A stretch of DNA of 64,000 nucleotides from assembly GCA_963695555.1 (NCBI GenBank), contig CAVOGR010000012.1:1-64000 (forward strand), written 5' to 3'. Of this stretch, positions 10,431 to 60,621 are shown one piece after another. The stretch is from an uncultured Gemmatimonadales bacterium (GTDB taxonomy: Bacteria; Gemmatimonadota; Gemmatimonadetes; Gemmatimonadales; GWC2-71-9). The notes beneath the pieces are model-generated. The model ran no database searches and was not told the origin of the DNA. It worked only from the letters and a program-made list of their open reading frames with translations. A program made the translations under genes and the position numbers. The number at the start of each line of letters is the position of its first letter. Within the stretch, counting starts at the first letter, position 1.

Positions 10431-10462
10431 AGCCCGGCGGGCCCTATGGGTCCCGCCGGGCT
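10431..10462. terminator. Hairpin between convergent gltA and speA, overlapping the speA stop
   Basis: agcccggcggg...cccgccgggct inverted repeat. Confidence 0.65.
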
Positions 10463-12384
10463 TCTCCTTCCAGGTAGGTGTACCCCTCCAGCCCGGCCAC
10501 GTAATCGGCAATGAAGTTATTGGCTTCCGCCCGGGTCAGGCCGGCTGCGCGGCCCACCTTACGGCGGAATGTGGCCAGCAAATCGGCTGCATGGAACTGG
10601 ACGAATGTGAGCACCTCGGTGACGGTGTCGCCATGAACCATGTCGGTGATCTCATAGCCCGCCTTGGTCATGCGCACATGCACTGCGTTGGTGTCGCCAA
10701 AAAGATTGTGGAGGTCGCCCAGGATCTCCTGGTAGGCGCCAACGAGGAAGACGCCCAGTACATACGGCTCGTCTTCGCGCAGCGGGTGGAGCAACAGACT
10801 ATGTTGAGGCTCGCCGCTGCCGACGAAGAGATCGATGACGCCATCGGAGTCGCAGGTAATGTCGTGGAGCGTGCCCCGCCGCGTCGGTTCCTCGTCGAGT
10901 CGATGAATCGGCATGATTGGGAAGACCTGGTCGATAGCCCAACTGTCAGGCAGCGACTGAAAGACCGAGAAGTTACAAAAATACCGATCCACCAGTGCCG
11001 ACTCGATATGGCCTCCGAGTTCCGGATGAGCGGCGCGACTCTCTCCCACCACCCCTGCCACCGCGTTCATGGTGCGAAGATAGAGCTGCTCCGCCTGGGC
11101 CCGCTGCCGGAGCGACAGGACGCCGCTGCCAAAGAGATCCTGCGCACGCTGCTTGGCGAACACGGCGTCGTGGAAGACCTCCATCGTCCGGTCTGACGCA
11201 ACGAGGTCCAAGTTTTCCAGCATCTCGTGCAACAGCGGGTGCGCATTGGGCTCCAATTGCGGCACGTCGGGGCCCTCCTGGGACTCGACGTCTGTGACAT
11301 CGACCAGCAAGATTGCGTGGTGCGCCGTGATGGCACGGCCCGATTCCGACACGACATGCGGCATCGGCAGCTTTTCCTGCCGGCAGATGGTGGCCATGCT
11401 GTGCACCACGTCGTTGGCGTACTCCGCCACGGTGTAGTTGGTGCTGGTGGGTCGATTGGACCGGGTGCCATCGTAGTCCACGCCGAGGCCGCCGCCGACG
11501 TCCACATGCGAGATGGCGAAGCCCAGACGGTGGAGTTCGACATAGAACCGTCCGATCTCCTGAAGCCCAACCTTGATCTGCCGAATGTCGGTGATCTGGC
11601 TGCCCAAGTGGAAGTGGATCATCTTGAGCAGGTCTTGCCGCCCCTCCGCAACCAGCCGGTCGAGCAGTGACACGAGCTGGGCCGCGCCAAGCCCGAACTT
11701 CGACCGCTCGCCCCCGCTCTTTGCCCACCGGCCAGCCCCTTCAGCCGCCAGTTTGATCCGCACGCCGATCTGGGGGGCTGCATTGAGTTCCTCGGCCGCC
11801 TCGAGCAACGTGTCCAACTCACTCAGTTGCTCGAGAACCACGAAAACCCGGTGCCCCAGCCGCTGGCCCATGAGGGCCAGCCGCATGAACTCCGCGTCTT
11901 TGTAGCCGTTACAGACAATCAGATGATCGGTGTCTTCGCTCAGCCCGAGAATGGCCTGCAGCTCCCCCTTGCTGCCGCACTCGAGTCCGACACCGTATCG
12001 CTCGCCGAATTCGACCACTTCCTGCACCACATGGCGCTGCTGGTTGACCTTGATGGGATAGACTGTGGTATACCCGCCGTCGTAGCCCGCTTCCTGGATG
12101 GCGTTCGCGAAGGCCGCCCCCAGTGCTTCGATCCGCGCCTGGAGCACATCCGAGAAGCGGAGCAGCAGGGGAAGATGGATGCCTTGCGCCCGGAGGTCTC
12201 CGGCCAATTCAAAGAGATCGAGACCCCGGCGTCGACCATCGGCGCTGGGGTTCACCGTCACGTGTCCCTTGGAGTTGATCCTGAAAAAACCGAGCCCCCA
12301 CCGGCGCATCCGGTAGAGCTTCTCGGAATCCTTGCTGGTCCAGCCGGCGTCGGCTGCAGCTTCAGGCGTGGTGGTGGTGGTGAT
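10444..12384 (-). CDS. speA: Biosynthetic arginine decarboxylase
   Basis: VYPIKVNQ (PLP Lys), CNGYKD, HFHLGSQI, DVGGGLG, SESGRA, DITCDSDG, GAYQEILGDLHNLFG. Start uncertain: ATC at 12384 is proposed; the ORF is open to 12453. Confidence 0.95.
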   Translation of the reverse strand: MTTTTTPEAAADAGWTSKDSEKLYRMRRWGLGFFRINSKGHVTVNPSADGRRRGLDLFELAGDLRAQGIHLPLLLRFSDVLQARIEALGAAFANAIQEAGYDGGYTTVYPIKVNQQRHVVQEVVEFGERYGVGLECGSKGELQAILGLSEDTDHLIVCNGYKDAEFMRLALMGQRLGHRVFVVLEQLSELDTLLEAAEELNAAPQIGVRIKLAAEGAGRWAKSGGERSKFGLGAAQLVSLLDRLVAEGRQDLLKMIHFHLGSQITDIRQIKVGLQEIGRFYVELHRLGFAISHVDVGGGLGVDYDGTRSNRPTSTNYTVAEYANDVVHSMATICRQEKLPMPHVVSESGRAITAHHAILLVDVTDVESQEGPDVPQLEPNAHPLLHEMLENLDLVASDRTMEVFHDAVFAKQRAQDLFGSGVLSLRQRAQAEQLYLRTMNAVAGVVGESRAAHPELGGHIESALVDRYFCNFSVFQSLPDSWAIDQVFPIMPIHRLDEEPTRRGTLHDITCDSDGVIDLFVGSGEPQHSLLLHPLREDEPYVLGVFLVGAYQEILGDLHNLFGDTNAVHVRMTKAGYEITDMVHGDTVTEVLTFVQFHAADLLATFRRKVGRAAGLTRAEANNFIADYVAGLEGYTYLEGEARRDP

Positions 12385-12412
12385 CGCGCTCCTCCGGTCC
12401 CGGGGCAGGCCC

Positions 12413-12418
12413 ATTCTA
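12413..12418 (-). promoter_or_regulatory. Putative -10 element (TAGAAT) of the speA promoter
   Basis: TAGAAT on the minus strand, TTCCCG 18 nt upstream, GGAGGA SD downstream. Confidence 0.5.
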
Positions 12419-12461
12419 ACCCCGGCACCCCGCACTCGGGAAGCGCCCTCCACGAAGAGCC

Positions 12462-12490
12462 TTGACCGAGCGGGGGCACCCCACTAGTCT
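12462..12490 (+). promoter_or_regulatory. Sigma70-like promoter TTGACC-N17-TAGTCT
   Basis: Near-consensus -35 and -10 with 17-nt spacer. Confidence 0.6.
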
Positions 12491-12496
12491 TCTCTC

Positions 12497-12608
12497 CCAA
12501 GGACATAGCCCGCAAGGGCCCCAGGGGTCATGGACTGCTTCCGGCCTGGGTGATCAAAACCCGGAGGACGAGCCACCCGGTTCCGCGCATGCGGACCGGG
12601 GGTTTTTG
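12497..12608 (+). ncRNA. Candidate ~110-nt small RNA or attenuated leader (unassigned family)
   Basis: Bounded by the promoter above and a GC hairpin plus T-tract; contains a GCAA tetraloop hairpin and repeated GGAC motifs. Confidence 0.5.
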
Positions 12609-12693
12609 CTTGTGGGCATTTGAGCCGGCACCGTCTCACACGCCAGTGCGAGGTATATTTGGAGCAATCACACCTTCCACCAGGGAGCAGTCG

Positions 12694-13782
12694 GTGAAGT
12701 GGTCCTATCGCATCGGTCAGATCGCCGGAACGGACATCAAAGTCCACATCACGTTCCTCCTCCTCCTGGCGTTCATTGCATTCGTCAGCTACACGAGCGG
12801 CGGCCTCGCCAGTGCCGTGGGGACCACCGTGATGATCGTGGCGCTCTTCGCCTGCGTCCTGCTCCATGAATTCGGCCACATCCTGATGGCCCGGCGATTT
12901 GGGGTCCGCACGCCGGACGTCATTCTCCTTCCCATCGGCGGACTGGCCCGGTTGGAGCGCATGCCGGAGGAGCCCCGCCAGGAGCTGCTCATCGCCCTCG
13001 CAGGCCCGGCCGTCACCCTCGCCATCGCAGTGATCTTGTATCTCGTGCTGATGCTCAGTGGCGCCACGCTCACTGTCCAAGAGTTGACGCGGCTCGACCA
13101 GCCGCTGCTCCAGAATCTCATGGTCATCAACGTGATGCTGCTCCTGTTCAACCTGATTCCCGCCTTCCCGATGGATGGCGGTCGAGTGCTTCGGGCCGTG
13201 CTCGCAAGCCGAATGGGGCTTCGTCGTGCCACCCGAATCGCCGCGAGCATCGGCCAGGCCCTAGCCGTGCTGTTCGGGATGTGGGCGGTGTTCTACTCCT
13301 GGAATCCAATTCTCCTGCTCATCGCCGTGTTCGTGTTCCTCGCGGCCGGTGCCGAGGCCACCGCTATCGAAACGTCGTCGGCGGGCAAAGGCGTCGTCGT
13401 GGCCGACATGATGATCACCAATTTTCGCACCATCCCCGTATACGCGCCGCTCCAGCAGGCGGTCGAATTTCTGCTCGAAGGCGAGCAGCGCGAGTTCCCC
13501 GTGGTAGACAACGATGGACGCGTGGAGGGGTTGCTCACGCGGGAAAACCTCATCAAGGCGTTGGCGGAGCACGGCCCGGGCTCCATCGTGGGCGAGGCGA
13601 TGACGCCGCGCGTGGCCGGTGTGTCTCCCGCCCTGGAGTTCAACCAGGCCCTTACGCAGCTCCGCTCGAGCGGGCTCTCGGCGCTGCCGGTGCTCGATCC
13701 GGCCGGCCGCCTGATCGGCCTCCTCACGATGGACAACATCTCCGACCTCCTCCTGGTGCGCCGGGCCCAGGGCGTCGAATGA
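12694..13782 (+). CDS. Site-2 protease (peptidase M50) with tandem CBS domains
   Basis: LLHEFGH, NLIPAFPMDGGR, C-terminal CBS pair; GTG start with GGAG SD. Confidence 0.93.
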   Translation: MKWSYRIGQIAGTDIKVHITFLLLLAFIAFVSYTSGGLASAVGTTVMIVALFACVLLHEFGHILMARRFGVRTPDVILLPIGGLARLERMPEEPRQELLIALAGPAVTLAIAVILYLVLMLSGATLTVQELTRLDQPLLQNLMVINVMLLLFNLIPAFPMDGGRVLRAVLASRMGLRRATRIAASIGQALAVLFGMWAVFYSWNPILLLIAVFVFLAAGAEATAIETSSAGKGVVVADMMITNFRTIPVYAPLQQAVEFLLEGEQREFPVVDNDGRVEGLLTRENLIKALAEHGPGSIVGEAMTPRVAGVSPALEFNQALTQLRSSGLSALPVLDPAGRLIGLLTMDNISDLLLVRRAQGVE

Positions 13783-15182
13783 GCGGGCGTGCATCCGACG
13801 CGTCGCCGTTTCGGATAGCCGAGCGAACCTCACTCATCGCGGCGCCTCCCGAGAAGGTGTTCGCGTGGCACGCCCACCCGGGCGCGCTGGAGCGCCTGAT
13901 CCCACCGTGGGAATCAGTCGAGGTGGTGGAACAGAGCGCCGGCTTCGAGGATGGTGCCCGCGTAACACTGCGCGTCAGGCAGGGGCCCCTCACCTTTCGA
14001 TGGGTCGCCATCCATCGGGATACGATCCCGGGGCGGCAGTTCGTCGACGAGCAGGTCGAAGGGCCTTTTTCGCACTGGATTCACACCCACCGGATGGATC
14101 CCGCCGAGGACGGCAGCTGCCGGCTCTCGGATCGCATCGAGTATGCTCCGCCCTTCGGTCTCGTGGGAGCAGCGGCAGGACAGTGGTGCCTGGCCCCGCA
14201 GATCGAGCGTATGCTACGCTATCGTCACGATGTCACGCGAGAGGACCTCGCCGCGCACTCGCGGTTTCGGGATAGTCCCCGTCTGACGATCGCAGTGACC
14301 GGCTCCCACGGCCTCATCGGATCGGCGCTGGTCCCCTTCCTCACGACCGGCGGGCACCGGGTCGTGCGGCTGGTGCGCTCGCGGCCCGCCCCTGGTGACG
14401 TGCTCTGGGATGCGGCAACCGGCCGATTCGATCCTGAGGCTCTTGGCTCGGTCGACGCCGTCATCCACCTCGCCGGCGAGAACATTGCGGCAGGCCGATG
14501 GACCGAGAGCCAGAAGCGTCGCATCCGTGAAAGCCGTCTCCGGACGACTGGCGGCCTGAGTCACGCCCTCGCCGCGCTCGACCGGCCTCCGTCGGTGCTG
14601 ATTTGCGCCTCGGCGATCGGGTTCTATGGCGACCGGGCCGATGAGCCCCTGAGTGAGGACAGCCCGGCGGGGACAGGCTTCTTGGCTGACCTGGCGCGCG
14701 ATTGGGAGGCGGCAACGGAGCCAGCGGCGGCACGGGATCTGCGGGTGGTCCACACGCGCTTCGGCGTCGTGCTGTCTCCGCAAGGCGGGGCGCTCAAGGC
14801 CATGTTGCCCGTGTTCAGGATCGGGCTCGGAGGGCGCTTGGGACCGGGCTCACAGTGGATGAGTTGGATATCGATCGACGACACCATCGGCGCCATTTAT
14901 CACGCCTTGCACACTGCTGACCTGCGCGGACCCGTCAATGTGGTCGCCCCCGCGGCCGTGAGGAATCGGGCCTTTGCCGAGACCTTGGCGAACCTACTTG
15001 GCCGGCCCGCGCTCGGGCCGGTGCCCGCACCGCTTCTTCGGCTCGTTGTCGGCGAGATGGCCGGTGAGGCATTGTTGGCCAGCGCGCGGGTCACGCCCTT
15101 GCGGCTCAGCGACACCGGGTATCATTTCCGACACGCGACCCTGGAAGCGGCACTATCGCACGTCTTAGGTAAGTCGATCTAG
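13779..15182 (+). CDS. SRPBCC-domain/TIGR01777-family NAD-dependent epimerase fusion
   Basis: N-terminal FVDEQVEGPFSHWIHTH; VTGSHGLIG, HLAGENI, SAIGFYG, GSQWMSWI. ATGA overlap with the upstream gene. Confidence 0.9.
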   Translation: MSGRASDASPFRIAERTSLIAAPPEKVFAWHAHPGALERLIPPWESVEVVEQSAGFEDGARVTLRVRQGPLTFRWVAIHRDTIPGRQFVDEQVEGPFSHWIHTHRMDPAEDGSCRLSDRIEYAPPFGLVGAAAGQWCLAPQIERMLRYRHDVTREDLAAHSRFRDSPRLTIAVTGSHGLIGSALVPFLTTGGHRVVRLVRSRPAPGDVLWDAATGRFDPEALGSVDAVIHLAGENIAAGRWTESQKRRIRESRLRTTGGLSHALAALDRPPSVLICASAIGFYGDRADEPLSEDSPAGTGFLADLARDWEAATEPAAARDLRVVHTRFGVVLSPQGGALKAMLPVFRIGLGGRLGPGSQWMSWISIDDTIGAIYHALHTADLRGPVNVVAPAAVRNRAFAETLANLLGRPALGPVPAPLLRLVVGEMAGEALLASARVTPLRLSDTGYHFRHATLEAALSHVLGKSI

Positions 15183-15229: not shown

Positions 15230-15844
15230 ATGACGCCCCCGTCCTACAGCGACCGCATCGATCATGCTTTCGCGTACCTCGTTAAGCACTACGGCGCGGG
15301 GAGCCCGCGCTTTGCGTCCCCCGCACCCCATGCCCGGGCCATGAACGTCGCTGTGACGCTGGCAAGATTCGGCTGCGATGAAGAAACCATCGTCGCGGGT
15401 ATCCTGCGCTATGTCTTCGAGGAAGCCGCCCCGCGGGTCAGGCCGGCGCTAGAGGGCAAAGTCGAGCAGAAGTTCGGGAACTCGTCCTTCCTCGCCGCCC
15501 GAGATGCCACATTCCCAAAGTATGATGCCACCGGGCGCGAGCGATCCTGGATGGACTACCGCCACGCGTACCTCGACCGGCTGCACGGCACGGCTCCCCG
15601 AACACTGGACCTGGTGGCCGCACACGAGATTCATTGGTGCGGTTCCGCCCTGTCCACCATCGAGCGATTAGGCGACGAGTACCTTCATGGTTTGACCCCT
15701 GCCACACATGCCGAGCTCCTCTGGTGGTATCGATCCCTGGGTGAGGTGCTCGACGAGCGGGCTGATTGGGTACATCCTTCCATGCTCGGGGAACTCCGAC
15801 GTCTGAGTGCGCGGCTAATCCGGTCCTCACCGAACCCTCGCTAG
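15230..15844 (+). CDS. HD-domain (RelA/SpoT hydrolase/Mesh1-like) protein with degenerate HD motif
   Basis: RIDHAFAYLVKHY...NVAVTLARFGCDEETIVAGILRYVFEE...KFG matches the HD_4 pattern, but HD is replaced by RY. Confidence 0.7.
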   Translation: MTPPSYSDRIDHAFAYLVKHYGAGSPRFASPAPHARAMNVAVTLARFGCDEETIVAGILRYVFEEAAPRVRPALEGKVEQKFGNSSFLAARDATFPKYDATGRERSWMDYRHAYLDRLHGTAPRTLDLVAAHEIHWCGSALSTIERLGDEYLHGLTPATHAELLWWYRSLGEVLDERADWVHPSMLGELRRLSARLIRSSPNPR

Positions 15845-15890
15845 CCCCAACGACACGGCCCTCGCGACCGTCCGCGGCTGGGACCGGCCG

Positions 15891-17294
15891 ATGTACAGTC
15901 TGGTTTGGCGGATGGCCATGGGCCAGCTATTTTGCACGCACATGGGAACCTTCCCTCACTCGGCACCTCTGTCCCCAATTCCAACCGCGTTCGCGGAAGC
16001 GTGCCGCGTCTCCCGTACGGACGCGGAGCTGTTCGAGCGATGTCGGGATGTGCTGGTCAATCGTTTCGGCAGCGAGAAGATCTGGTTCACCATCACGTCG
16101 CCTCGTGGTCCGGACCGGCGGATTGGCGCCGCGGCCGGGTATGAAGACGCCCGGCAAGTGGCCCACGTTGGGAGCGGAGACATCGAACTCACAATTGCCG
16201 CAGACACCGGTGTCGCCGACCAGATTCGAGGCGATGCTGTCCCGCTGGCATGGGGCCTCCTGGTCACCTTGGAGCTTCGGAGCGTCCTGGTCGAGCGGCA
16301 GGCGGACCTCGATGATGCCGTCTTCCAACTGCGTGCCCTCCGGCAGGTCGCGCGGCTCTTGTCTTCGGTCCATTCCACCGAAGAAACCGAGCACCTCATC
16401 GTCGATTTCACCGCGGAGGTGTTCATCACGAGCTGGGCTTGTTTGTATCGGCCTCGGGGCAAGGAATACCACCCGGTCGCGTTTCGCAGCCGTGAGGAAG
16501 CCCCACCACCTGCGGGGATCCCGCGCGAGCAGCTCGACCGCGTGGTCCCGCTCGGCGGCTCCGCCGCGGCGTGCGACCAGACGCCGCTTGCCGCGGTGGT
16601 GACTCCCGGTACGCAGTTCGTGGTTCCGCTCGATGCCGGACCGGAACGGATGGCGGTCCTGGCCTTCGGCCCCCGGGTCACGGGGCAGCAGCTTGGCAAC
16701 GCCGAGCTCGAGCTGGCCGGTACGCTCTCGTTTGCCGCGGCGATCGCACTCAAGAACGCAGCCTTGGTGGAAGAACTCCATAGCGCGGCCACCACGGACC
16801 AACTCACGGGGCTCTACAACCGCCGGGCGCTCGAGGAACGGCTCAAGGCGGAACTGCAGCGGGCAAGTCGCCATGCGCTGCATACCACGATCGTCTTGAT
16901 CGATATCGACTACTTCAAGCTGGTCAACGACAACCTCGGGCATCTCGAGGGCGACCGGCTGCTGGTGCTACTCGGAAAGATCTTCTCGAAACAGAGCCGG
17001 AACCTGGATATCGTCGGCCGGCTCGGGGGAGACGAGTTCTTGGTGATCCTGCCGATGACCAATGGCGAGGAAGCACAGATCTACGTGAAGCGGGTTCTCG
17101 ACACTCTTCGTCGCTTACCCGAGGATTATCCGGAATTTGGGCCGCAGACGATCAGCCTGGGTTTGGCGGTGGCCCCGCGTCACGGATCGACGCCGAGCGC
17201 CCTCCTCCGCGCGGCGGATGCAGCGCTCTACCGTGCGAAACGTACCGGCGGCAACAGGGTTGAAGTGGCGGAGGGTGAGGATGGTAGCGGGTGA
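15891..17294 (+). CDS. Diguanylate cyclase with GAF-like sensor region
   Basis: TDQLTGLYNRR, DIDYFKLVND, RNLD I-site, RLGGDEF, ADAALYRAK. Start uncertain. Confidence 0.92.
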   Translation: MYSLVWRMAMGQLFCTHMGTFPHSAPLSPIPTAFAEACRVSRTDAELFERCRDVLVNRFGSEKIWFTITSPRGPDRRIGAAAGYEDARQVAHVGSGDIELTIAADTGVADQIRGDAVPLAWGLLVTLELRSVLVERQADLDDAVFQLRALRQVARLLSSVHSTEETEHLIVDFTAEVFITSWACLYRPRGKEYHPVAFRSREEAPPPAGIPREQLDRVVPLGGSAAACDQTPLAAVVTPGTQFVVPLDAGPERMAVLAFGPRVTGQQLGNAELELAGTLSFAAAIALKNAALVEELHSAATTDQLTGLYNRRALEERLKAELQRASRHALHTTIVLIDIDYFKLVNDNLGHLEGDRLLVLLGKIFSKQSRNLDIVGRLGGDEFLVILPMTNGEEAQIYVKRVLDTLRRLPEDYPEFGPQTISLGLAVAPRHGSTPSALLRAADAALYRAKRTGGNRVEVAEGEDGSG

Positions 17295-60547: not shown

Positions 60548-60621
60548 TCGGGACGGCGGGATTTGAACCCGCGACCCCTGCAACCCCATTGCAGTGCGCT
60601 ACCGGACTGCGCCACGTCCCG
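60548..60621 (-). tRNA. tRNA-Pro (GGG), CCA not encoded
   Basis: CGGGACG acceptor stem, TGGCGCAGTCCGGTAGCGC D-arm, anticodon loop AT-GGG-GT, GGTTCAAATCC T-arm. Confidence 0.96.

Follow-up and report, generated by a model that had tools for sequence, protein, structure and literature searches.

Between the divergent gene speA and a peptidase M50 gene, the window (the whole 64,000-nucleotide stretch of DNA analysed here, from an uncultured Gemmatimonadales genome, G000) holds a short segment with the appearance of a transcription unit. Does this segment encode an RNA of its own and, if so, of what kind and with what mode of action? The original prediction proposed a stand-alone small RNA (sRNA) of no known family, possibly a CsrA sponge, with a new attenuator or riboswitch for the M50 cluster as the alternative. 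The first part of this proposal is borne out by a promoter-like site and a terminator belonging to the RNA itself, by the absence of an Rfam match and by conserved homologues. We are highly confident that the segment is a genuine gene for a structured sRNA, and that this sRNA represents a new family. It would be transcribed independently from the plus strand at approximately 12497–12608, under its own sigma-70-like promoter and terminator.

The locus, its signals and known families

The features of the locus are as follows; column numbers refer to alignment A7 of the homologues, described below.

10444–12453 (−): speA, biosynthetic arginine decarboxylase (Pfam), divergent from the RNA, likely ATG at 12414
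12462–12467 (+): −35-like hexamer TTGACC of the sRNA promoter (direct reading; matching site in homologues)
12485–12490 (+): −10-like hexamer TAGTCT, 17-nt spacer to the −35 (direct reading; position conserved)
Between TAGTCT and CAUAG (+): short C/U-rich 5' tail (direct reading)
12504–12508 (+): CAUAG, near-invariant and unpaired, at the 5' edge of the fold (columns 4–8, same letter in 91–92 of 92)
12508–12519 (+): P1 hairpin, GCCC-GCAA-GGGC
12520–12525 (+): 5' strand of the pseudoknot helix, CCCAGG, partner of 12545–12550
12526–12537 (+): L1, variable in length and sequence, holding one GGAC (columns 27–41, gap-rich and variable)
12538–12544 (+): 5' strand of P2, CUUCCGG
12545–12550 (+): 3' strand of the pseudoknot helix, CCUGGG, within the P2 loop
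12551–12560 (+): L3, UGAUCAAAAC, with conserved U-G-A-N-N-A-A (columns 56–58 and 61–62)
12561–12567 (+): 3' strand of P2, CCGGAGG, covarying with 12538–12544
Between the P2 3' strand and the terminator (+): spacer of 8 nt (direct reading)
12576–12600 (+): intrinsic terminator, CCCGGTTCCGC-GCAT-GCGGACCGGG, a bulged 10-bp GC-rich hairpin (direct reading and fold)
12603–12607 (+): TTTTT (U5), preceded by GG, forming the 3' end of the terminator (12576–12607)
12501, 12532, 12566 and 12593 (+): four copies of GGAC (direct reading)
12654–12659 (+): TATATT, putative −10-like element for M50 (conserved in G000, G004, G001, G003 and L038)
12694–13782 (+): peptidase M50 + CBS gene with a GTG start and GGGAG 7 nt upstream (Pfam)
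15230–15844 (+): HD-domain gene (Pfam)
15891–17294 (+): GAF-GGDEF cyclase gene (Pfam)

The TTGACC-N17-TAGTCT pair described in the original prediction is present at 12462–12490, and we infer a transcription start near 12497. A site of the form TTGNNN-N16-18-TANNNT, ending 6–25 nt upstream of the core, occurs in 67 of 90 homologues, against a chance rate that we roughly estimate at less than 1 in 90. The terminator was also read correctly on the plus strand: where 60 nt or more of downstream flank is available, 90 of 90 copies carry a hairpin (−10 kcal/mol or better) no further than about 25 nt from the core, and the next 10 positions include at least 5 T. A consensus scanner missed both signals in the window, the promoter with 8 of 12 matches, which is under the scanner cut-off, and the terminator because its stem is bulged. 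The −10-like TATATT ahead of M50, likewise part of the prediction, is found at its place and is conserved in relatives as a candidate promoter element.

The orientation of the RNA is assigned from its terminators and promoter-like sites, together with the copies found after cold-shock genes (see below), since the wobble pairs are ambiguous for strand (GU/UG 32 vs. AC/CA 35 over all pairs). The two inner P2 pairs give GU 12 vs. AC 0, and the outer, poorly aligned pairs lean towards AC. Predicted folding was more stable on the plus strand in 63 of the 92 copies, only with the terminator included. As for expression, one 2027-base contig from RNA library X1, which may be DNA or the source sample, spans the whole stretch, and libraries X2–X4 show no coverage of 12486–12617; neither observation speaks for or against a transcript. 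RNAs of about 110 nt are usually lost from standard libraries. A further RNA-library contig, from a related strain, covers the 5' end of speA (12301–12485) and ends inside the sRNA promoter. Should this contig be speA mRNA, and not DNA carry-over, the sRNA gene and the promoter of speA would overlap.

The Rfam covariance models returned no family for the RNA at gathering or permissive thresholds. At gathering score, the only match of Rfam 15 in the whole window was a tRNA gene at 60548–60621 (−), and a search of 12380–12720 at E ≤ 10 gave zero matches, CsrB/Rsm families included. Six homologous loci from four contexts, searched at E ≤ 1, also gave no family match to the RNA; their only matches were tRNAs, a sub-threshold cspA mRNA and weak antisense-tRNA matches to a plastid family. 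The bacterial small SRP RNA (RF00169) was considered and rejected: G000 has its own copy on contig 1 (841776–841873, 44.3 bits). A full-text literature search, with subscription journals and supplementary motif lists outside its scope, found neither a description of this RNA nor a regulatory RNA specific to Gemmatimonadota, and a prior listing in a large motif survey is possible. The paper on a spermidine riboswitch (PMC10853860) concerns SAM-I variants and is unrelated to the sRNA.

A pseudoknot maintained by covariation

The covariation check was carried out on alignment A7, comprising 92 non-redundant copies; one further match (L178, 31.7 bits) was left out as coding-like sequence without a terminator. 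The scored structure consisted of P1, the pseudoknot helix and P2, with 17 pairs and 1536 cells in total. Standard pairs filled 92.6% of these cells, as compared to 83.7 ± 0.5% in shuffled alignments, and 10 of the 17 pairs showed changes on both sides, carried by 141 cells vs. 44 expected. None of 500 shuffles reached the observed value on any structure measure. In a control where the partners were slid by one to three columns, paired cells did not exceed 62.9%.

The pairing first noted as CCAGG/CCTGG proved to be a six-pair helix, CCCAGG at 12520–12525 with CCTGGG at 12545–12550 (columns 21–26/50–55), paired in 98.4% of cells and with double-sided changes in two of its pairs. A12523-U12547 is A-U in 83 copies, G-C in 8 and unpaired in none, while the last pair of the helix is G-C in 80, A-U in 2 and unpaired in 9. 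The helix P2, absent from the original prediction, joins CTTCCGG (12538–12544) to CCGGAGG (12561–12567; columns 42–48/70–78), and all seven of its pairs changed on both sides; in the closest relative (G004), the window's CCGG/CCGG is replaced by the compensatory CCAG/CUGG. The CCUGGG strand is enclosed by the P2 loop, so that the two helices cross in an H-type pseudoknot, each with covariation support.

The GCCC-GCAA-GGGC hairpin (P1) was read as predicted, with 100% of cells paired across homologues. It is nearly invariant, with one replacement of G-C by A-U. The P1 loop reads GNRA in the class of the window copy and UUCG in most relatives, and is therefore probably structural in itself. P1 is continuous with the pseudoknot helix on one strand, and so is likely stacked on this 6-bp helix. 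RNAalifold, applied to 46 full-length copies, independently recovered P1, the CCCAGG/CCUGGG helix and the terminator. Within L3, columns 56–58 are identical in 90–92 of the 92 copies and columns 61–62 in 88. The GGGT/ACCC pairing that had also been proposed was dropped: its covariation was 0.159 vs. 0.148 in shuffles, with 66 of 500 shuffles equally high, and it competes with the covarying P2 helix.

The folding energy of the window copy alone was ordinary (z of −0.81 on the plus and −0.08 on the minus strand), and single-sequence folding cannot represent a pseudoknot. The case for more than chance is thus comparative, since neither single-sequence energy nor the consensus scan gave anything. 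From 5' to 3', the predicted layout would be a 5' tail up to CAUAG, P1, the H-type pseudoknot, an A-rich L3 (UGANNAA), a short spacer and the terminator.

A conserved, aptamer-like fold with covariation invites comparison, at the level of architecture, with the preQ1-I/II, SAM-II/V and fluoride aptamers. Like the sRNA, these are compact H-type pseudoknots, with one helix whose 3' strand falls within the loop of the second, an A-rich third loop, near-invariant junction bases and a terminator. The sRNA differs by its extra 5' hairpin P1, has no match to these Rfam models at E ≤ 10 and, unlike H-type pseudoknot riboswitches, has no downstream gene to control in 95 of 123 loci.

Distribution and genomic contexts

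A BLAST search with 12400–12700 against 41 related genomes gave matches in 7, the window genome included. In the more distant of these, only query positions ~102–211, the RNA itself, were conserved (76–83% identity): the element is conserved and its flanks are not. Of 151 genomes from the same GTDB family, 57 matched a covariance model of the 69-nt core (R1) at E ≤ 0.01, with carriers in 35 of 78 genera, and 35 genomes matched at E ≤ 1e-8. An exact-pattern scan with one genome per species matched at least 119 contigs. Among the matches listed, 117 were labeled Gemmatimonadota, Gemmatimonadales or Gemmatimonadaceae and the other two Bacillota and Acidimicrobiia; the Acidimicrobiia label seems to reflect an error of binning or naming. 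The family now counts more than 120 distinct sequences.

A second model (R2), built from 100 sequences, was applied to a phylum-wide set of 151 genomes. Among the 71 that belong to the sRNA's own GTDB family, 32 gave a match, a tally that includes the unpublished genome G193. Outside this family, six matches of 19–21 bits were obtained (4 of 16 genomes in family f7, 2 of 13 in f10 and 0 of 50 in the other nine families). These six were judged false by eye, as were eight matches below 24 bits in near-complete genomes; all lie in coding-like sequence and none has a terminator. Among the genomes sampled, carriers of the RNA are thus limited to a single GTDB family of Gemmatimonadota. All of these carriers are metagenome bins, and near-complete genomes hold one or two true copies each, in different context classes.

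The genomic context was tallied over 123 distinct loci, with Pfam run on 29. In 82 of them, a GAF-GGDEF cyclase gene is divergent from the RNA, mostly together with a convergent 5'-nucleotidase or HD gene past the terminator; 13 further loci have the convergent gene alone, which brings this arrangement (class A) to 95 of 123. The window arrangement, speA | RNA | M50-CBS (class B), accounts for 20 loci. Wherever class B loci have enough flank, M50-CBS follows on the same strand (16 with speA and M50, 1 with M50 only, plus L197). A GGDEF gene lies downstream on the same strand at one locus, and 7 of 123 fall outside the named arrangements.

The R2 search added further classes. Some copies lie directly after a cold-shock gene (L194, region 1048–1602, and L195, L196, L169 and L199), whose CSD domain was confirmed by Pfam at L194. 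They start about 17 nt past the csp stop codon, with no promoter-like site between, and end at the terminator of the csp gene, so that this class looks like a 3'-UTR-embedded version of the RNA. At L194, five tRNA genes lie just upstream of the csp gene. Two copies (L172 and L176) are divergent from a DEAD-box helicase gene, and others are near unrelated genes (RlmL, LPG synthase, sulfatase and PAS).

The class A cyclase is the orthologue of the window gene at 15891–17294 (52–62% identity by BLAST). In the window, the HD and GAF-GGDEF genes (15230–17294) are adjacent, with a gap of about 50 nt and no RNA between. This pair lies 2.6 kb downstream of the class B copy, and its orthologues flank the RNA in most other genera; the window genus seems to have lost the class A copy and kept only the one between speA and M50. 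The intervening ORF (13281–15182) encodes a fusion of SRPBCC (polyketide cyclase-like), NAD-epimerase and DUF1731 domains; as the GTG listed for it overlaps the end of the M50 gene, translation probably starts further downstream.

A conserved Met of the divergent cyclase lies about 93 nt from CAUAG, and the likely speA ATG (12414) 47 nt from the −35 hexamer. Given these short distances, the promoters of the sRNA and of the divergent gene are presumably back to back or overlapping, an arrangement that may couple their expression. A c-di-GMP role based on the GGDEF neighbor was considered and set aside, with nothing specific in its support and ordinary c-di-GMP-I riboswitches already present. 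The latter occur in 31 of 41 family genomes, with up to 8 matches per genome; G066 holds tandem arrays (C3 and C36), and G000 has a copy on contig 2 (269765–269846).

Mode of action and significance

We consider it probable that the locus encodes a stand-alone, structured sRNA of about 112 nt, of a new family, which acts in trans through its fold. A stand-alone RNA is preferred to a leader because the gene past the terminator is convergent in most loci (95 of 123). As a mechanism, we tentatively propose fold-dependent binding, suggested by the conservation pattern: the pseudoknot would be offered to a partner, either a protein or a small ligand, and would not serve as a linear Hfq-type seed. 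This proposal draws on selection acting on both the fold and its unpaired bases, and on the lack of Hfq and CsrA. No Hfq was found in G000 or in any of 41 family genomes, of which 40 were 95% complete or better, and CsrA was present in 5 of 41 family genomes of that completeness; these tallies, like that of c-di-GMP-I, include the unpublished genome G087. The neighbors (GAF-GGDEF, speA/M50-CBS, cold-shock and DEAD-box helicase genes) point to a link with signaling and RNA remodeling.

The position of the class B copies invites the reading, raised in the original prediction, of a cis leader (riboswitch or attenuator) of M50-CBS, in which the pseudoknot senses a signal and the terminator sets read-through. 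M50-CBS is downstream on the same strand in all class B loci with enough flank, the fold resembles a compact aptamer followed by a terminator, and RNA-library contigs from two studies begin at 12618 and 12625, before TATATT, a weak hint of read-through into M50. However, a same-strand M50 gene is present in only 20 of 123 loci, and the next gene is convergent in 95; other copies follow a cold-shock gene or precede RlmL, LPG synthase, sulfatase or PAS genes. The TATATT element before M50 is conserved in the genus, and by eye no conserved alternative pairing with the terminator (antiterminator) was seen. In L168, L170 and L171, the M50 ATG lies 12–16 nt past the T tract, preceded by a −10-like hexamer but no Shine-Dalgarno sequence, which points to leaderless M50 mRNAs and to an overlap of their promoter with the sRNA terminator. 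A leader function is therefore improbable for the family, although some cis effect by read-through into M50 is possible in class B only. It is highly unlikely that the RNA is instead a 3'-end module, in which pseudoknot and terminator protect or mark transcripts, as an exonuclease block or processing guide, and do not regulate in trans. The terminator directly follows the fold in all 90 homologues, and the cold-shock class, about 17 nt past the stop codon without a promoter-like site between, would suit such a role, but most copies have their own promoter-like site and so would protect only themselves. The cold-shock class also resembles 3'-UTR-derived sRNAs, from which the window copy and most others differ by that site.

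Base pairing without Hfq, with L3 (UGANNAA) or the 5' CAUAG as the seed for mRNAs, is unlikely. A promoter, a 5' domain and a terminator make up the usual sRNA layout, paralogous copies occur within one genome, and one class lies within a 3' UTR, a frequent origin of sRNAs. On the other hand, the invariant unpaired stretches are just 3–5 nt long and flank helices, selection clearly maintains the pseudoknot, and no family genome has Hfq. The sponge proposal, in which repeated GGA motifs titrate CsrA/RsmA, has next to no probability. CsrB/RsmY/RsmZ sRNAs titrate CsrA through ANGGA repeats, and they share with our sRNA a stand-alone layout with promoter and terminator. The window copy does have the four GGAC motifs noted earlier, vs. 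~0.7 expected from base composition by our estimate, but only 2 of 92 homologues, those of the window genome and its closest relative, have four; 58 have none, 25 have one and 7 have two. Even same-genus copies carry one and two, and ANGGA is absent from 41 of 92. Three of the four motifs lie in the variable loop, a covarying helix strand and the terminator stem, and what the homologues conserve is a pseudoknot instead of an array of GGA hairpins. The check for csrA that accompanied the prediction did not find CsrA in G000 (87% complete), nor was it found in the carriers G002 (98% complete), G011, G042, G043, G079 and G082. The Rfam search gave no CsrB/Rsm match. It is rather unlikely, finally, that the RNA is a riboswitch-like aptamer in free-standing form, binding a small signaling molecule or a dedicated protein. 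Such an RNA would be a trans sensor or buffer, its expression coupled via back-to-back promoters to that of the diguanylate cyclase, of speA and thus polyamine synthesis, and of the csp and DEAD-box helicase genes. The Bdellovibrio c-di-GMP 'merRNA' is reportedly a stand-alone sRNA derived from a riboswitch; it too is an aptamer-like RNA made as its own short transcript, as predicted for our sRNA, most copies of which adjoin a diguanylate cyclase gene, but the sRNA has no similarity to the c-di-GMP-I or -II models. If the aptamer reading were true, this would be a new regulatory RNA class, the first described for Gemmatimonadota.

Overall, a stand-alone sRNA acting in trans through its fold remains our preferred reading. 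The RNA is a well-supported new structured family, suited to an Rfam-style seed alignment, with an unusual layout: an aptamer-like fold found for the most part outside leaders. Its repeated linkage to the c-di-GMP cyclase, speA and cold-shock genes provides testable leads. Gemmatimonadota are abundant in soils and sediments and almost uncultured. As none of the 41 genomes yielded Hfq and just 5 yielded CsrA, RNA-based regulation in this Gemmatimonadota family must use helpers other than Hfq and CsrA. The unusual layout, the absence of Hfq and the rarity of CsrA thus make the sRNA a useful entry point to RNA-based regulation in such bacteria.
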